Source: a virus
Lineage: Duplodnaviria; Heunggongvirae; Uroviricota; Caudoviricetes
Length of the DNA: 28,284 nt
Strand: one strand, 5' to 3'
Virus record (IMG/VR): IMGVR_UViG_2713896773_000001
Made by a program: the position numbers and the translations under genes. Positions 3,042-24,927 of this stretch are shown piece after piece; the first letter of the stretch is position 1; every line of letters starts with the position of its first letter. Below the pieces are notes generated by a model. The model searched no databases and was not told the origin of the DNA. It saw nothing but the letters and a program-made list of their open reading frames with translations.

Positions 3042-3397
3042 AAATTTACGACATCACGCCGATCGGCAAGCCCCGTATGACCCGCGCCGACAAATGGAAA
3101 ACACGGCCTGCGGTCATGCGTTACCGCGCATTCTGCGATGAAGCACGTCTGCGCAAAATCAATCTCCCTGAGTCCGGCGCGCATATCACCTTCGTTATGC
3201 CAATGCCTCCGAGCTGGAGCAAAAAGAAGCGTGAACAGCTCAACGGCAAGCCGCACCAGTCAAAACCAGACTGCGACAACATGCTTAAAGCACTGATGGA
3301 TGCCCTGTTTGATGATGATTCCAGTGTCTGGGATTGTCGCATTACAAAGCTATGGGGCGAGAAAGGCCAGATCATCATTCGGGAGAACGGACAATGA
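3038..3397 (+). CDS. rusA: RusA-family Holliday junction resolvase
   Basis: PDCDNMLKALMDALFDD matches the RusA catalytic D-x-DN...K...DAL motif; position downstream of ninB in the nin region. Confidence 0.8.
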   Translation: MKIYDITPIGKPRMTRADKWKTRPAVMRYRAFCDEARLRKINLPESGAHITFVMPMPPSWSKKKREQLNGKPHQSKPDCDNMLKALMDALFDDDSSVWDCRITKLWGEKGQIIIRENGQ

Positions 3398-4077
3398 CAC
3401 GCACCGATATTAACAATTACCAGAAAGCGTCTGTTGAGCGTACCAACCCGCAAAACGCCTGGGTGACGCTGGCAGCAGCACCACGCAGATCTTACCTGGG
3501 GAAATACCGCCGACTGACACCATCGCAAAGCCGTTGGGTTCGTTCGTTGCTGAACAACTGGGGCGGCATGTATGGAGGCAGCGGAATAGAACACCTTTCA
3601 GGTGGCGGTGGTATGTGGTCAATGATATTGACCGGCTGGACTGGCGAACAGCAGGAGCGGATCGCTACCGTACTGTCTGGTCTGCGTAAAATTGGCTATA
3701 CCGGAGATGCGTTGTTTGAGCAGGCTAAAGCCATCATCTGGCCGAAGAAATCACTTTCTGACCTGATCGGCAACGCCGGGGATCAAGAGGAAGCTGCATT
3801 CATGGAGGCTATCATCCTGAAGTCCTTCAAGCCGGGGAATCCCGTGTATGAGATAGGGAAGGACTATTACACCTGGAGGAAAACCATTAATGACATGGCA
3901 CGGTGGATGCAATATTACTACGCGCCGTTTCTGACCGAAAAGCAATGTATTGACCGCGTGCGCTGGTGTATTGAGTTGTTTAATTCTGCTGTCTTCTTCA
4001 CGTTAAAAGATGAATTTGGCTTCGAAAATGCAAAAACTTGCGAAAAAGACTTGAAAACGAGTTTTGAAACTGCATAA
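3394..4077 (+). CDS. putative late-gene antiterminator (Q-like), assigned mainly by position
   Basis: ATGA overlap with rusA; last gene before a promoter/terminator pair and the lysis cassette, as for Q in lambdoid phages. Sequence family not confirmed. Confidence 0.5.
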   Translation: MTRTDINNYQKASVERTNPQNAWVTLAAAPRRSYLGKYRRLTPSQSRWVRSLLNNWGGMYGGSGIEHLSGGGGMWSMILTGWTGEQQERIATVLSGLRKIGYTGDALFEQAKAIIWPKKSLSDLIGNAGDQEEAAFMEAIILKSFKPGNPVYEIGKDYYTWRKTINDMARWMQYYYAPFLTEKQCIDRVRWCIELFNSAVFFTLKDEFGFENAKTCEKDLKTSFETA

Positions 4078-6346: not shown

Positions 6347-6406
6347 TCGCGGCATTACAGAAGCCCTTCATTGAGGGGCTTCGATAATGGAGCACTGGAA
6401 TTATTC

Positions 6407-7027
6407 ATGAACAGACCACACCCACCAGCGCATTTTACGATGCCACCTGACCCGAAGCCGTACATCAGCATTATGCCCGCTAATGACGTTGGCGAGTGGC
6501 TGAATCAGCACATCCTGAGCGATGAGGGTGACCTCTACAACCATGACCACCAGCATTTGCTTGAAGCGGATCTGTGCTTTCTCTGGGCGTCTAACGCTTT
6601 CGAGAAGAAAGGGCGTTCCGTGCTGGGGCAGGCGGAAGAAGTGGCAATGCGGGCTGGAGGCTGGCAGAAAGCGCGGATGGAGCAGCAGATGTATGAATGG
6701 TTCGGCAGGGTGCCGCAGTTCATCATCACGCTGGCCGCTGATTACTGCTCGCAATGTTCCGATCTGGAATTCTGTGCGCTGATAGAGCACGAGCTTTATC
6801 ACATCTGCCAGGCGACAGATGAATTTGGCGCGCCGAAGTTCACGCAGGAAGGGCAGCCAAAGCTGAAGCTGCGCGGCCATGACGTGGAAGAGTTTGTGGG
6901 CGTGGTTCGCCGTTACGGTGCAAGCCGGGACGTGCAGGAAATGATTGATGCGGCGAATCAGCCAGCGGAGGTTGCTCATCTCGATATTGCCAGAGCGTGC
7001 GGGACGTGCATGCTGCGACTGGCTTAA
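6407..7027 (+). CDS. putative zinc metallopeptidase-like protein (HExxH motif)
   Basis: IEHELYHI contains an HExxH zinc-binding signature; ATG at 6407 chosen over the TTG at 6371. Family not confirmed. Confidence 0.5.
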   Translation: MNRPHPPAHFTMPPDPKPYISIMPANDVGEWLNQHILSDEGDLYNHDHQHLLEADLCFLWASNAFEKKGRSVLGQAEEVAMRAGGWQKARMEQQMYEWFGRVPQFIITLAADYCSQCSDLEFCALIEHELYHICQATDEFGAPKFTQEGQPKLKLRGHDVEEFVGVVRRYGASRDVQEMIDAANQPAEVAHLDIARACGTCMLRLA

Positions 7028-22171: not shown

Positions 22172-23236
22172 ATGTCTCTTAACTGGATGCGCCATTTTGA
22201 GCTGCAACTGTTGGACCAGAACGGGCAGGGCGTTTCCCTGTCTGATTTTAAGGTCACGTTCCAGATCGAGTGGGCAGATACACGCTGGCCGCGAGTGGCG
22301 AACGTGAAAATTTACAACCTTTCGACCGATACCACGAACAAGATACTGGGGCAGGAGTTTGCAAAAATTCGCATCATTGCCGGGTATGACGGTATTGCGC
22401 CGGATGTTGATGCGAGCCAGGTTGGTGTCGCCCGGGAGATTTCACCAGACCAGGTAGGGCAGGTGAACGGTCAGAACTACGGCCTGATATTTGACGGTGA
22501 TATTCGCTTCACCGTCACCGGGAAGGACAACATCACCGATTCCTGGGTGCTGATTCAGGCCATCAGTAACCACGAAGCGTTCCTCTACGCGACTACCATC
22601 ACCACGCTTGCCGCTGGCTATACCGTTGCGGATCTGCACCGGGCGACGATGCAGGATTTCAACGCGTTCGGCGTGACACAGGGCATTACCGGCGATTTTC
22701 CTGATACCGTGTTTCCTCGTGGCCGCGCGATTTACTCATCCAGCCGCAACGTGATGGATAATATTGCTGCGCAGTGTAAAGCAACATGGCAACTGGTGGA
22801 TGGTCAGGTCCAGATGGTGCCTGAAGATAAATATATTCACGAAGCCATTGTGTTGAATGCTGATACTGGCCTGATCGGTATGCCGCAACAGACGATGGGC
22901 GGCGGCGTAAACGTGCGGTGCCTGATAAACCCGAACATCCGCATTAATGGTCTTATCCAGCTCGATCAGGCTTCGGTGTACCGCGCCGCGCTCGGCAATA
23001 GCGAAATCGCACAGTCGCCCGGGCGTATCACCGAAACAGAAGAGAACGGCAACCGTGTGCTGACCGGCACGACGTCACAGGCTGCCAGCATTGCGACGGA
23101 TGGCGTTTATATCGTCAAAGCTATCGACTATACTGGCGACACCAGAGGTCAGGCGTGGTACATGGATTTGATGTGTTTTGCGCGTGGCAGCCGTGATTTA
23201 GTTAATACTAGTGCTATGCAAAAAACAAACTACTGA
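22172..23236 (+). CDS. putative baseplate hub-type protein
   Basis: 354 aa, AGGAG upstream, positioned before the spike and wedge genes. The last codons are AT-rich, at the border of the cargo island. Confidence 0.5.
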   Translation: MSLNWMRHFELQLLDQNGQGVSLSDFKVTFQIEWADTRWPRVANVKIYNLSTDTTNKILGQEFAKIRIIAGYDGIAPDVDASQVGVAREISPDQVGQVNGQNYGLIFDGDIRFTVTGKDNITDSWVLIQAISNHEAFLYATTITTLAAGYTVADLHRATMQDFNAFGVTQGITGDFPDTVFPRGRAIYSSSRNVMDNIAAQCKATWQLVDGQVQMVPEDKYIHEAIVLNADTGLIGMPQQTMGGGVNVRCLINPNIRINGLIQLDQASVYRAALGNSEIAQSPGRITETEENGNRVLTGTTSQAASIATDGVYIVKAIDYTGDTRGQAWYMDLMCFARGSRDLVNTSAMQKTNY

Positions 23237-23246
23237 GGTACGGGAT

Positions 23247-23582
23247 GTGAAACTCGTAATTTTTACCATTGCAGCATTATTTTCTTTCCAGGCTATTGCT
23301 GATTCTCAGTGTGGTGATTTCAAAATCCATTGGGCTGATGATGGCTTTGCTCGCGTAAACGGAGCTAAACCAGAATCGCAAAAAGTGACATTTCTTAAAA
23401 ATGACGGTGATTATAACAACGTCAAAATTGAATGGCGTTTAGCTACAAATCAACCCGGACGATGGGTAGGCATGGAGTTTATTGGCCGTAATGGTAAAGC
23501 AATCCTGAATGCTCAGTGGCTGCAAGCCAGCATGAACGCGCCGCGACAGTACGCAACATACGACTGCGTGAAGGTGAAGTAG
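23247..23582 (+). CDS. small secreted protein (cleavable signal peptide, two Cys), moron-type cargo; GTG start
   Basis: GAGG upstream of GTG 23247; N-terminal KLVIFTIAALFSFQAIA then DSQCG...; AT-rich compared with the flanking tail genes. Confidence 0.5.
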   Translation: MKLVIFTIAALFSFQAIADSQCGDFKIHWADDGFARVNGAKPESQKVTFLKNDGDYNNVKIEWRLATNQPGRWVGMEFIGRNGKAILNAQWLQASMNAPRQYATYDCVKVK

Positions 23583-23590
23583 GTATAAAG

Positions 23591-23614
23591 AAAAAGCGCC
23601 GGGTTGACCGGCGC
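23591..23614 (-). terminator. stem-loop (GCGCCGG-GTTGA-CCGGCGC) with a T-run on the minus strand; terminator for the minus-strand cargo gene, possibly bidirectional
   Basis: Perfect 7-bp GC stem; AAAAA on the + side gives TTTTT after the hairpin for a minus-strand transcript. Confidence 0.5.
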
Positions 23615-23620
23615 GCCAAG

Positions 23621-23971
23621 TTATTCCTCTTTGAAGCTGATGTTCTTGCACTGCTCCATTACTTCAATCAGTTCTTTTGACGTCAGGTTTTCTACTTCGA
23701 TTTTACCTTTCTCTGTGGTCATTGTTATTTTTTTGGATGATCTGGTCTGTATCCATTTTCTTGCGATAGATGCAATGGCTATACAAGCTGGTGACGACGT
23801 GGCTACGATGATAGTTATGTCGACGAGCGTGCCAACCGCATTAATTGAGTCAGCAGTTCTGATTCGTCTGCGTATTTTATAGTCGCTTTCAGGTATGTTA
23901 TCCTGGATTATGGAGAGCAATTCTTTGCCTATTGCTGGAGTAAATTTTATGGTTGTTTCTGATTTTGGCAT
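23621..23971 (-). CDS. hypothetical small protein with a central hydrophobic (membrane-type) segment, moron-type cargo
   Basis: 116-aa minus-strand ORF in the AT-rich island, K/E/I-rich with AVGTLVDITIIVATSSPACIAIASIA segment; terminator immediately downstream on its own strand. Confidence 0.45.
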   Translation of the reverse strand: MPKSETTIKFTPAIGKELLSIIQDNIPESDYKIRRRIRTADSINAVGTLVDITIIVATSSPACIAIASIARKWIQTRSSKKITMTTEKGKIEVENLTSKELIEVMEQCKNISFKEE

Positions 23972-24110
23972 AAAGGTATCCGGCCCCTATCGTGAGAAGC
24001 TAAAAATTGCCTTGCGGCTTTTTCTTGGCAGCCTGTATCTCGCTACGAACCACGACGTTACCGTGGTTTTAAGCAAGACCTACATTCAGGGCTGCAAAGA
24101 AGATAAATAG
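23949..24110 (+). CDS. candidate small ORF (53 aa from ATG 23949) in the cargo island
   Basis: GGAG 8 nt upstream of ATG 23949; followed by a + strand terminator. Its 5' end overlaps the minus-strand gene start, so one of the two models may be wrong. Confidence 0.3.
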   Translation: MVVSDFGIKVSGPYREKLKIALRLFLGSLYLATNHDVTVVLSKTYIQGCKEDK

Positions 24111-24150
24111 CACGGACAAATCAGCCCTCAAACCCTGACATTTGATCAGT

Positions 24151-24175
24151 AACCCGCCGCCGAGCGGGTTTTTTT
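24151..24175 (+). terminator. rho-independent terminator (AACCCGC-CGCCGA-GCGGGTT followed by a T-run) directly upstream of the baseplate spike gene
   Basis: GC stem plus 7 T on the + strand. Confidence 0.6.
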
Positions 24176-24186
24176 ATGGAGTTTTT

Positions 24187-24927
24187 ATGCCAATTCCAAC
24201 TCAATCACAGATCGGCGGAGAGCAGCAGACCGCGCAGGCCATTGCCGATTCGGTGTCTGCCCAGATGCGCGTGGCGATGCCAGGCATCATTCAGTCGTTC
24301 GATCCTGCCGCTGTAACCTGCACAGTAGAAGTGGCGCTTCGCGGTATTGTTGGCGATGGTTCCACCGAATTAAAACCGCTGGTGGATGTGCCGGTCATCT
24401 TCCCGCGCGGCGGCGGTTGCACGCTGACCTTTCCGGTAAAAGAAGGCGACGAGTGCCTCCTGATTTTTGCTGACCGTTGCATCGATTTTTGGTGGCAGAG
24501 CGGCGGCGTTCAGGAGACCGTCGACCCGCGCCAGCATGACTTATCTGATGCGTTCGCCATCGTTGGCCCGCAGTCGCAAGCACAGAAAATCAGCGGTATC
24601 AGTACCAGCGCCGCGCAGCTGCGAACCGATGATGGCGCGGCGTTCGTAGAGGTCGCCGCAGGACATAACATCACCATTAAAACGCCGGGCCAGCTTACGG
24701 CTACGGCTGAAGGTGGAACGACAATCACATCCCCGACTATCACGCTGAACGGCAACGTAACGATTAACGGTAACCTGTCTCAGGGAATGGGAGAAAGTGG
24801 TGGTACTGCGACGATGCTTGGGCCGGTTACGGTAACGAATGATGTGACAGCTTCAGGTATAAGTGTCGCCACGCATAAACATGGCGGAGTTCAGACAGGC
24901 GGGGGAACTACTGGAGGGCCGCAATAA
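24187..24927 (+). CDS. putative baseplate spike protein (gpV-like)
   Basis: GGAG upstream; C-terminal Gly/Thr-rich repeat region (TITLNGNVTINGNLSQG...) typical of spikes; position before the wedge genes. Confidence 0.55.
   Translation: MPIPTQSQIGGEQQTAQAIADSVSAQMRVAMPGIIQSFDPAAVTCTVEVALRGIVGDGSTELKPLVDVPVIFPRGGGCTLTFPVKEGDECLLIFADRCIDFWWQSGGVQETVDPRQHDLSDAFAIVGPQSQAQKISGISTSAAQLRTDDGAAFVEVAAGHNITIKTPGQLTATAEGGTTITSPTITLNGNVTINGNLSQGMGESGGTATMLGPVTVTNDVTASGISVATHKHGGVQTGGGTTGGPQ

Follow-up and report, generated by a model that had tools for sequence, protein, structure and literature searches.

The late region of a lambdoid prophage carries a conserved, mobile, low-G+C cassette of two protein-coding genes that lie head to head on opposite strands and overlap at their starts. 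The larger gene encodes a 116-aa protein that sequence and profile comparisons identify as a homologue of the latent pore-forming effector EACC1, with the R-T-x-D loop retained; the smaller encodes a 53-aa partner. The reading that we favour, with confidence that stands at about even, is a latent pore-toxin expressed in the lysogen together with its cognate small regulator, the two coupled by antisense overlap and presumably serving in exclusion or abortive infection.

A two-gene cassette between the baseplate hub and gpV genes

The window, that is, the whole stretch of 28,284 nucleotides that was analysed, corresponds to the late region of a contractile-tailed lambdoid prophage, and its late genes all lie on the plus strand. 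A Nin region (NinX, NinB, a YbcO/DUF968-like gene and RusA) is followed by an ORF in the Q slot, lysis genes (holin, lysozyme and Rz), genes for Rha, a putative metallopeptidase, portal, Mu-F-like protein, major capsid protein and sheath, and then SLT tape measure, baseplate hub, gpV spike and W/J-like baseplate genes. Between the hub and gpV genes, an island (23100-24150) has 39-46% G+C, against 52-60% in the flanking tail genes. The cassette in this island has the order terminator, EACC1-like gene, start overlap, 53-aa gene, terminator, and is inserted antisense-first where the baseplate hub region gives way to the gpV spike gene; Citrobacter phage Omnitron matches the cassette flanks only. 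The features to which the text refers are these:

22172-23236, plus strand: baseplate hub gene
23247-23582, convergent with the EACC1-like gene: backbone gene for a secreted phage protein (phrog_3443; 'STY1065/STY2022 family')
23596-23614, minus strand: intrinsic terminator of the EACC1-like gene, GCGCCGG-loop-CCGGCGC followed by TTTTTCTTT
23621-23971, minus strand: EACC1-like gene, 116 aa (ATG at 23971, stop at 23621), homologue of a latent pore-forming effector by PF19953, BLASTP and hhalign
23728-23734, minus strand: A7 tract, read as T7 on the plus strand, that codes for the conserved S79-K80-K81; other isolates repeatedly show +/-1 frameshifts here
23849-23860, minus strand: codons for R38-T39-A40-D41, a putative site of activation by proteolysis, within predicted loop 39-47
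23937-23940, plus strand: Shine-Dalgarno sequence GGAG of the 53-aa gene, 8 nt upstream of its ATG
23949-23971, both strands: head-to-head overlap of 23 bp with both start codons inside it
23949-24110, plus strand: partner gene, 53 aa (ATG at 23949, stop codon ending at 24110), product identical to WP_016243572.1
24132-24152, plus strand: conserved motif ACCCTGACATTTGATCAGTAA, between the partner stop codon and the terminator
24151-24177, plus strand: intrinsic terminator after the 53-aa gene, 10 nt ahead of the gpV ribosome-binding site
24187-24927, plus strand: gpV spike gene

The overlap, put at about 23 bp in the earlier note on this DNA, is exactly 23 bp, and the signals that the note assigned to each gene were borne out. 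The minus-strand ORF has its own terminator on the correct strand, with seven G-C pairs and a T-run (23614-23596; -14.9 kcal/mol, z = -2.8), also conserved in an 80%-identical allele. The plus-strand ORF from 23949 has the GGAG ribosome-binding site and a downstream plus-strand terminator, composed of a hairpin (24151-24170) and a T7 run (-11.9 kcal/mol), whose stem shows compensatory changes across loci; at a lysis-cassette locus (L036), a terminator likewise lies 3' of the partner ORF. The motif ahead of the plus-strand terminator belongs to the tail context, where it is kept from E. coli to Pantoea, and is absent from other contexts.

The larger protein resembles EACC1 and retains a putative cleavage loop

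EACC1 has been described as an autoinhibited monomer whose C-terminal fragment assembles membrane pores after cleavage, and cleavage of the Ktedonobacter racemifer protein (KrEACC1) by the KrAvs12 caspase domain has been placed at Asp49 (bioRxiv 10.1101/2025.11.14.688446). The 116-aa protein only just passes the Pfam PF19953 model (23.6 bits, equal to the gathering cutoff of 23.6; E = 5.4e-5), which is matched by 14 of 15 close relatives (best E = 3.4e-7), and several homologues are named 'effector-associated constant component EACC1' by PGAP. BLASTP aligns it with KrEACC1 (WP_007905045.1; sequence as listed by Evans et al. in a supplementary table, bioRxiv 10.1101/2025.11.14.688446) over 93 residues at 25% identity (E = 4e-10), and hhalign of the family alignment A6 against KrEACC1 gives E = 1.5e-5 and a probability of 79.5%. 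In both alignments, R38-T39-A40-D41 falls on R46-T47-Q48-D49 of KrEACC1. T39 and D41 are invariant in the close-relative alignments A3 and A4, and D41 is >90% conserved in the wide alignment A6.

The AF2 model of the protein (pTM 0.61) is an alpha+beta fold with the predicted order strand 1, helix 1, strand 2, loop (39-47), hydrophobic strand 3/helix 2 (48-77), a hairpin of strands 4 and 5, and helix 3, a modelled topology that agrees with the published pairing of an N-terminal lid with C-terminal strands. The hydrophobic segment, rich in small residues (52-70, ITIIVATSSPACIAIASIA; Kyte-Doolittle 1.96 over 19 residues), is buried in the monomer model, and S59-S60-P61-A62-C63 and A65-I69 are invariant in A3. 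Features of the EACC1 family found here are a size within ~110-145 aa, one hydrophobic small-residue segment, alpha+beta flanks and a conserved loop Asp at the putative cleavage site. The label 'membrane protein' that the earlier note gave to this product is partly right: EACC1 is reported to be soluble as the autoinhibited monomer and membrane-active after cleavage.

What defined EACC1 was that a gene for a caspase-like protease consistently accompanies it on the 3' side (Kaur et al. 2020, PMC7159879). In the canonical two-gene system, this Peptidase_C14 enzyme is as a rule fused to sensor or effector domains. In the window, no protease gene adjoins the EACC1-like gene, whose 3' side is taken up by the terminator and the convergent backbone gene, and there is no adjacent protease in any of the phage-borne relative loci examined; the identical look-up applied to a canonical EACC1 (P0064) as positive control finds Peptidase_C14 10 nt downstream. 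Retention of the R-T-x-D loop suggests that proteolysis still matters. One alternative keeps the canonical EACC1 mechanism and supplies the protease in trans: the EACC1-like protein would be a decoy substrate that, on cleavage after D41, goes on to form pores, and the 53-aa protein would have no more than an accessory or immunity role. Candidates for the protease are a host orphan caspase-like defence protease and an enzyme from a superinfecting phage, for example a prohead maturation protease. [quoted passage not shown] 13, 10.1101/2025.11.14.688446). We regard it as unlikely, since the published rule is a tight physical linkage of EACC1 and caspase and since the scheme leaves the invariable, start-overlapping small neighbour unexplained.

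Both overlapping frames encode protein

A total of 49 related loci were collected from complete E. coli genomes, IMG/VR contigs, public-assembly look-ups and, for one locus, a genome-contig collection. In Nei-Gojobori counts over nine distinct alleles and the 45 partner codons outside the overlap, pN/pS is 0.19 in the 53-aa frame, whereas the two remaining plus-strand frames give 0.98 and 1.91, and comparison with Klebsiella, Symbiopectobacterium and other divergent alleles gives dS above 1 (saturated) and dN of ~0.15. Variable sites are distributed 28/16/44 over codon positions 1/2/3 in this frame (p = 0.001) and 21/13/53 in the 116-aa frame (p = 2e-7). The 53-aa frame is the sole open frame of six in ten alleles. 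All 13 close partner homologues in the protein database are full length, 11 of them 53 aa long and two called at 62 aa, of which one is extended at the N-terminus and the other diverges at the C-terminus. Homologues of the 116-aa protein extend down to 22-39% identity, and both proteins are conserved to ~25% identity. Both overlapping ORFs are true protein-coding genes.

The suspicion raised in the earlier note that one of the two gene models is wrong is refuted by these data, because both frames show purifying selection and a coding signature and both proteins have remote homologues; across homologous islands, both frames are conserved and not, as the note had also allowed for, only one of them. 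A start of the minus-strand gene at an internal TTG is unsupported and unlikely, given a conserved N-terminus (M-P-K-S-E-T-x-I) in which residues 5-10 form predicted strand 1, an element with a counterpart in the characterised EACC1.

The head-to-head overlap is present in every related locus examined. It spans 23 bp from E. coli to Pantoea and also in a locus of different context (L035), and 20, 26 or 41 nt in remoter relatives; as length varies while the arrangement stays, what is retained is the overlapping head-to-head arrangement rather than one sequence. Its recurrence across loci, with a coding substitution signature in both frames, is more than chance. The partner's Shine-Dalgarno sequence is kept in all alleles as GGAG or GGTGG, although this conservation alone is not diagnostic because the same bases encode residues of the EACC1-like protein. 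The ribosome-binding site of the EACC1-like gene is weak, and a search of 10 alleles for sigma-70 promoters found no positionally conserved or convincing candidate for this gene; plus-strand candidates are weak and confounded by coding constraint.

A second alternative takes the plus-strand transcript to be chiefly an antisense RNA that masks the translation initiation region of the toxin, as in the type I toxin-antitoxin pair hok/sok, with the 53-aa frame incidental or secondary. Necessary complementarity of the two 5' transcript ends across both start sites, a short plus-strand unit that ends at a terminator of its own, and an arrangement kept though overlap length varies would all suit an antisense RNA. 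We nonetheless consider this quite improbable: purifying selection clearly acts on the protein encoded in the plus frame (pN/pS 0.19, saturated dS and a dN of ~0.15), the partner protein motif is conserved at ~25% identity beyond DNA alignability, no RNA family is found in Rfam, and a toxin of 116 aa with a predicted soluble fold is unlike type I toxins. For the intergenic and overlap region, the candidates for a structured RNA in Rfam (E-value mode) were sroD and Trp_leader, both of them sub-threshold matches only.

The small partner protein

The partner family has the motif I-x(5-7)-[PS]-Y-x-x-K-L-[KR]-x-A-x-x-L, after which come a hydrophobic stretch and N-x-x-V-x-L. This pattern is seen in remote loci too, at ~25% identity, where the DNA is no longer alignable. 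A central helix is moderately hydrophobic across the family (Kyte-Doolittle 1.1-1.9 over 19 residues). Structure prediction of both products, proposed as a check in the earlier note, was informative for one of them: AF2 gave the alpha+beta fold of the 116-aa protein at pLDDT 71, and one long helix of low confidence for the partner (pLDDT 63), a model that was excluded from inference for that reason.

Searches of Pfam, NCBIfam, PADLOC and PHROGs detected neither similarity of the partner to known families nor a DNA-binding domain in it. NCBIfam, PADLOC and PHROGs gave no functional name for either protein: the PHROGs matches were to phrog_12509 (unknown function) and phrog_31205 (E = 0.27), and PADLOC-DB v2 gave a weak partial SngB match for the 116-aa protein (E = 0.0025, 15 bits) and none for the partner. 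The pair is not recognised as a defence system by PADLOC. The partner has no detectable similarity to EACC1 either, and the possibility that it is a free-standing mimic of the EACC1 N-terminal lid finds no support in the sequences (hhalign of A2 against A4, probability 0.1%).

The hydrophobicity of both products allows for a non-suicidal membrane function, in which constitutive insertion into the inner membrane would block DNA entry by superinfecting phage or modulate lysis timing, with the partner as a membrane co-factor. In favour of this are the hydrophobic small-residue segment of the larger protein (1.96 over 19 residues), the partner helix (1.1-1.9) and the location of the pair in moron positions typical of exclusion genes, including sites near lysis genes and beside cI. 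It is very improbable in our judgement, in that the characterised homologue is soluble until cleaved and then forms large pores (bioRxiv 10.1101/2025.11.14.688446), the hydrophobic segment is buried in the AF2 monomer, and a membrane function of this kind gives the conserved cleavage loop no role.

The pair moves as a unit among phage contexts

A partner HMM (A5), built from eleven partner sequences, detects the partner in 43 of the 45 loci with an EACC1-like gene. The two sub-threshold loci (L037 and L038) both encode the remotest relative (P0053), each on a short metagenomic contig, and by-eye inspection of L037 finds a 56-aa divergent ORF that overlaps the EACC1-like start by 26 nt. Sister prophages whose backbone matches but whose slot holds different cargo and no EACC1-like gene (L001, L004, L008 and L009) all lack the partner (0 of 4). 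The pair moves as a unit among four phage contexts. The first is the hub/gpV junction, in prophages of E. coli, Klebsiella, Citrobacter, Enterobacter, Symbiopectobacterium and Pantoea, with EACC1 identity down to 39%; the second lies between tape-measure and tail-tube genes (L035), and the third adjoins holin/endolysin genes (L036, L047 and L049). The fourth is directly downstream of cI (L039/L040), with the partner gene antisense to the cI transcript. In lambda, the position immediately downstream of cI is that of rexAB.

The cassette occurs in 13 of 5,426 complete E. coli genomes and is full-length in 12. The clade is rare: 1.84 billion representative proteins include 28 clusters that match at E < 1e-3, and tblastn against 50,697 isolated phage genome records found neither protein. 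The literature, searched for the protein accessions and for modules of this type, yielded nothing, expression and phenotype data included. We note that PGAP annotates one gene or the other of the pair, never both, so such small overlapping partners are likely to be under-counted elsewhere.

In four loci, the EACC1-like gene is broken beside an intact partner, and no locus showed the opposite. The gene is deleted to 42 codons in L010, where most of it has been replaced; in L027 the A-tract is A8, and in L041 and L042 it is A7 against an intact allele with A8, each change giving an 81-aa truncation with an intact partner. Toxin/antidote pairs typically show this asymmetry, which would follow from a large protein that does harm and a small one that protects, with the qualification that the sample is small and that homopolymer sequencing errors are possible. 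The retention of the small ORF in L010, like its orientation with the late genes in tail and lysis contexts, could also be taken to mean that the two genes are functionally unrelated neighbours, the 53-aa gene a late-operon tail or baseplate accessory and the EACC1-like gene a separate moron that abuts it, a notion made scarcely credible by the lack of the small ORF in the same-backbone sisters with other cargo and by its travel with the EACC1-like gene to the rex slot, antisense to cI, and to two other contexts.

A proposed switch between lysogeny and lytic growth

The earlier note had offered, as one of its options, a compact divergent module of toxin/antitoxin-like or exclusion type. The divergent pair itself stands, and the option agrees with the evidence as a whole and is strengthened by the EACC1 identity and the joint mobility of the genes; toxicity, neutralisation and exclusion are its predicted parts. 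In the reading of a latent pore-toxin with a cognate regulator, the EACC1-like protein would be made in the lysogen and held latent, and the 53-aa protein would act on it, most likely negatively (antitoxin-like), holding the place that a caspase-sensor fusion has in canonical systems. The geometry implies that the transcription start of each gene lies inside or beyond the other gene, so the two mRNAs are complementary over both ribosome-binding sites and start codons, and mutual antagonism is predicted, both from transcriptional interference and from duplexes between the two RNAs.

At the tail and lysis sites, the partner gene has the direction of the late operon and the toxin gene the opposite one. 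Late transcription of the resident phage would then silence the toxin and boost the partner at induction. In the lysogen, the terminator 3' of the partner gene would shield gpV from the partner transcript; during lytic growth it would have to be read through, presumably by Q-type antitermination, a route made likely by the lambdoid Nin-Q-lysis layout. Relatives in the rex slot would share a transcript with cI, an indication of expression in the lysogen. Activation could come about through a trans-acting protease, or through loss of the partner during superinfection or stress, and the outcome would be abortive infection or exclusion, analogous to that of RexAB. The A7/A8 tract in the toxin gene may provide phase-variable on/off control.

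A fuller scenario, which we put forward tentatively and somewhat short of even confidence, is that temperate enterobacterial phages captured a protease-less branch of EACC1 in which the caspase-sensor gene was replaced by the head-to-head ~53-aa protein. Post-translational gating of the toxin and mutually exclusive expression, the latter protecting the resident phage at induction, would together make a self-contained abortive-infection or exclusion switch.

EACC1 was shown to be a protease-licensed pore former only recently, and the cassette raises the possibilities of a second way to license or restrain this pore former, of trans-activation by host or invader proteases, and of a new compact class of prophage cargo in classic exclusion slots, including the rex position. 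It also offers a clean natural case of two conserved genes on opposite strands with their start codons and ribosome-binding sites at one 23-bp overlap.

Comparison with known systems

Bacterial gasdermin-protease systems would share with the cassette, by its EACC1 homology, a latent pore former with a proteolytically removed N- or C-terminal lid, but the cassette has neither gasdermin homology nor an adjacent protease. The pair does not fit the definition of type II toxin-antitoxin systems, as its genes are divergent and overlapping rather than in a co-directional operon and no DNA-binding domain was detected in the partner. Type I systems such as hok/sok are closer in layout, with head-to-head units, complementarity to the toxin initiation region, own terminators and a membrane-damaging product (a property predicted for the cassette). 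However, they are defined by a non-coding antisense RNA and a short hydrophobic toxin, whereas here the antisense partner encodes a selected protein and the larger product is a folded protein of 116 aa rather than a hydrophobic peptide under 60 aa.

Lambda RexA/RexB resembles the cassette as two-gene prophage cargo with expected expression in the lysogen and a membrane-permeabilising component (putative in the cassette), and relatives of the cassette occupy the rex slot; the two have no kinship in sequence or fold, and the cassette genes are divergent and overlapping rather than co-transcribed.

The nearest likeness in the proteins themselves is to the EACC1-caspase system (PMC7159879; bioRxiv 10.1101/2025.11.14.688446), which shares the size of the larger protein, its central hydrophobic segment, the C-terminal strand-strand-helix arrangement and the R-T-x-D loop, as well as a compact two-gene unit in a conflict-type setting, here prophage cargo. 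The phage cassette differs in having no caspase, other protease gene or sensor domain, and in a partner of 53-68 aa that is divergent with overlapping starts instead of a downstream operon gene. Host range differs too: the cassette is found in temperate phages of Enterobacterales, whereas EACC1-caspase pairs are found mainly in actinobacteria, cyanobacteria and other multicellular bacteria. Compared with that system, this clade has kept the cleavage loop, lost the protease and gained an obligate, start-overlapping micro-partner.

A cargo slot upstream of gpV

This prophage lineage has a cargo hot-spot, the slot that separates the small secreted-protein gene from the spike gene gpV, as seen by comparing the window with four sister prophages that lack the EACC1-like gene (L001, L004, L008 and L009) and with L010, in which it is mostly replaced. 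The features concerned are:

23247-23582, plus strand: small secreted-protein gene, signal-peptide-like N-terminus (phrog_3443, E = 8e-44)
23583-24186: cargo slot
23728-23734, minus strand: A7 homopolymer tract, codons S79-K80-K81 of the EACC1-like gene
24132-24152: motif ACCCTGACATTTGATCAGTAA, between the stop codon of the 53-aa partner gene and the terminator

The secreted-protein gene, whose product PGAP names 'STY1065/STY2022 family phage-derived protein', is a conserved backbone gene flanked by the hub gene and the slot, and its G+C is also low. In L004 the slot instead encodes a DUF4236 membrane-anchored protein on the minus strand, and this variant likewise has a terminator hairpin immediately 5' of gpV; the alternative contents also include several unrelated genes on the plus strand. 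Motif ACCCTGACATTTGATCAGTAA is conserved in the tail context from E. coli to Pantoea and is absent where the cassette (EACC1-like and partner genes) occupies other contexts.

Possible additional genes in other contexts

Further genes or gene calls were noted in loci that carry the cassette at the rex slot directly after cI (L039, L040) and at the tape-measure/tube junction (L035):

L039 4537-4941 and L040 3014-3418, same strand as the EACC1-like gene: gene for a 134-aa protein whose N-terminus carries a transmembrane segment
L035 4432-4926, plus strand: 164-aa gene call of the collection, low complexity
L035 4191-4802, minus strand: 203-aa ORF after the partner gene, with a terminator at its end

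In the rex slot, the EACC1-like gene is followed by the 134-aa protein gene, whose product may be a third component of the cassette there. The 203-aa ORF is possibly additional cargo, and the low-complexity 164-aa call looks spurious.

Annotation and integrity of the overlapping pair

In RefSeq (L002, L003, L005, L006, L007 and L010), PGAP calls either the 116-aa minus-strand gene or the 53-aa plus-strand gene at the cassette locus, never both, and its choice differs even where the DNA is identical. The start-codon overlap seems to make pipelines omit one real gene. Most divergent alleles of the EACC1-like gene keep the homopolymer tract as A7/A8, where independent +/-1 frameshifts in L027, L041 and L042 cut the protein to 81 aa. 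They could stem from phase variation, from a toxic gene being knocked out repeatedly, or from sequencing error in the homopolymer.

Other ORFs in the window

3334-4077, plus strand: 247-aa ORF that occupies the place of late antiterminator Q, between RusA and the holin
6371-7027, plus strand: ORF matching 'Putative phage metallopeptidase' (PF18894, E = 4e-43)

The 247-aa ORF has no Pfam match. The putative metallopeptidase ORF lies between Rha and the terminase region, and a single prophage encodes both a putative phage protease (PF18894) and a homologue of a protease-gated toxin.
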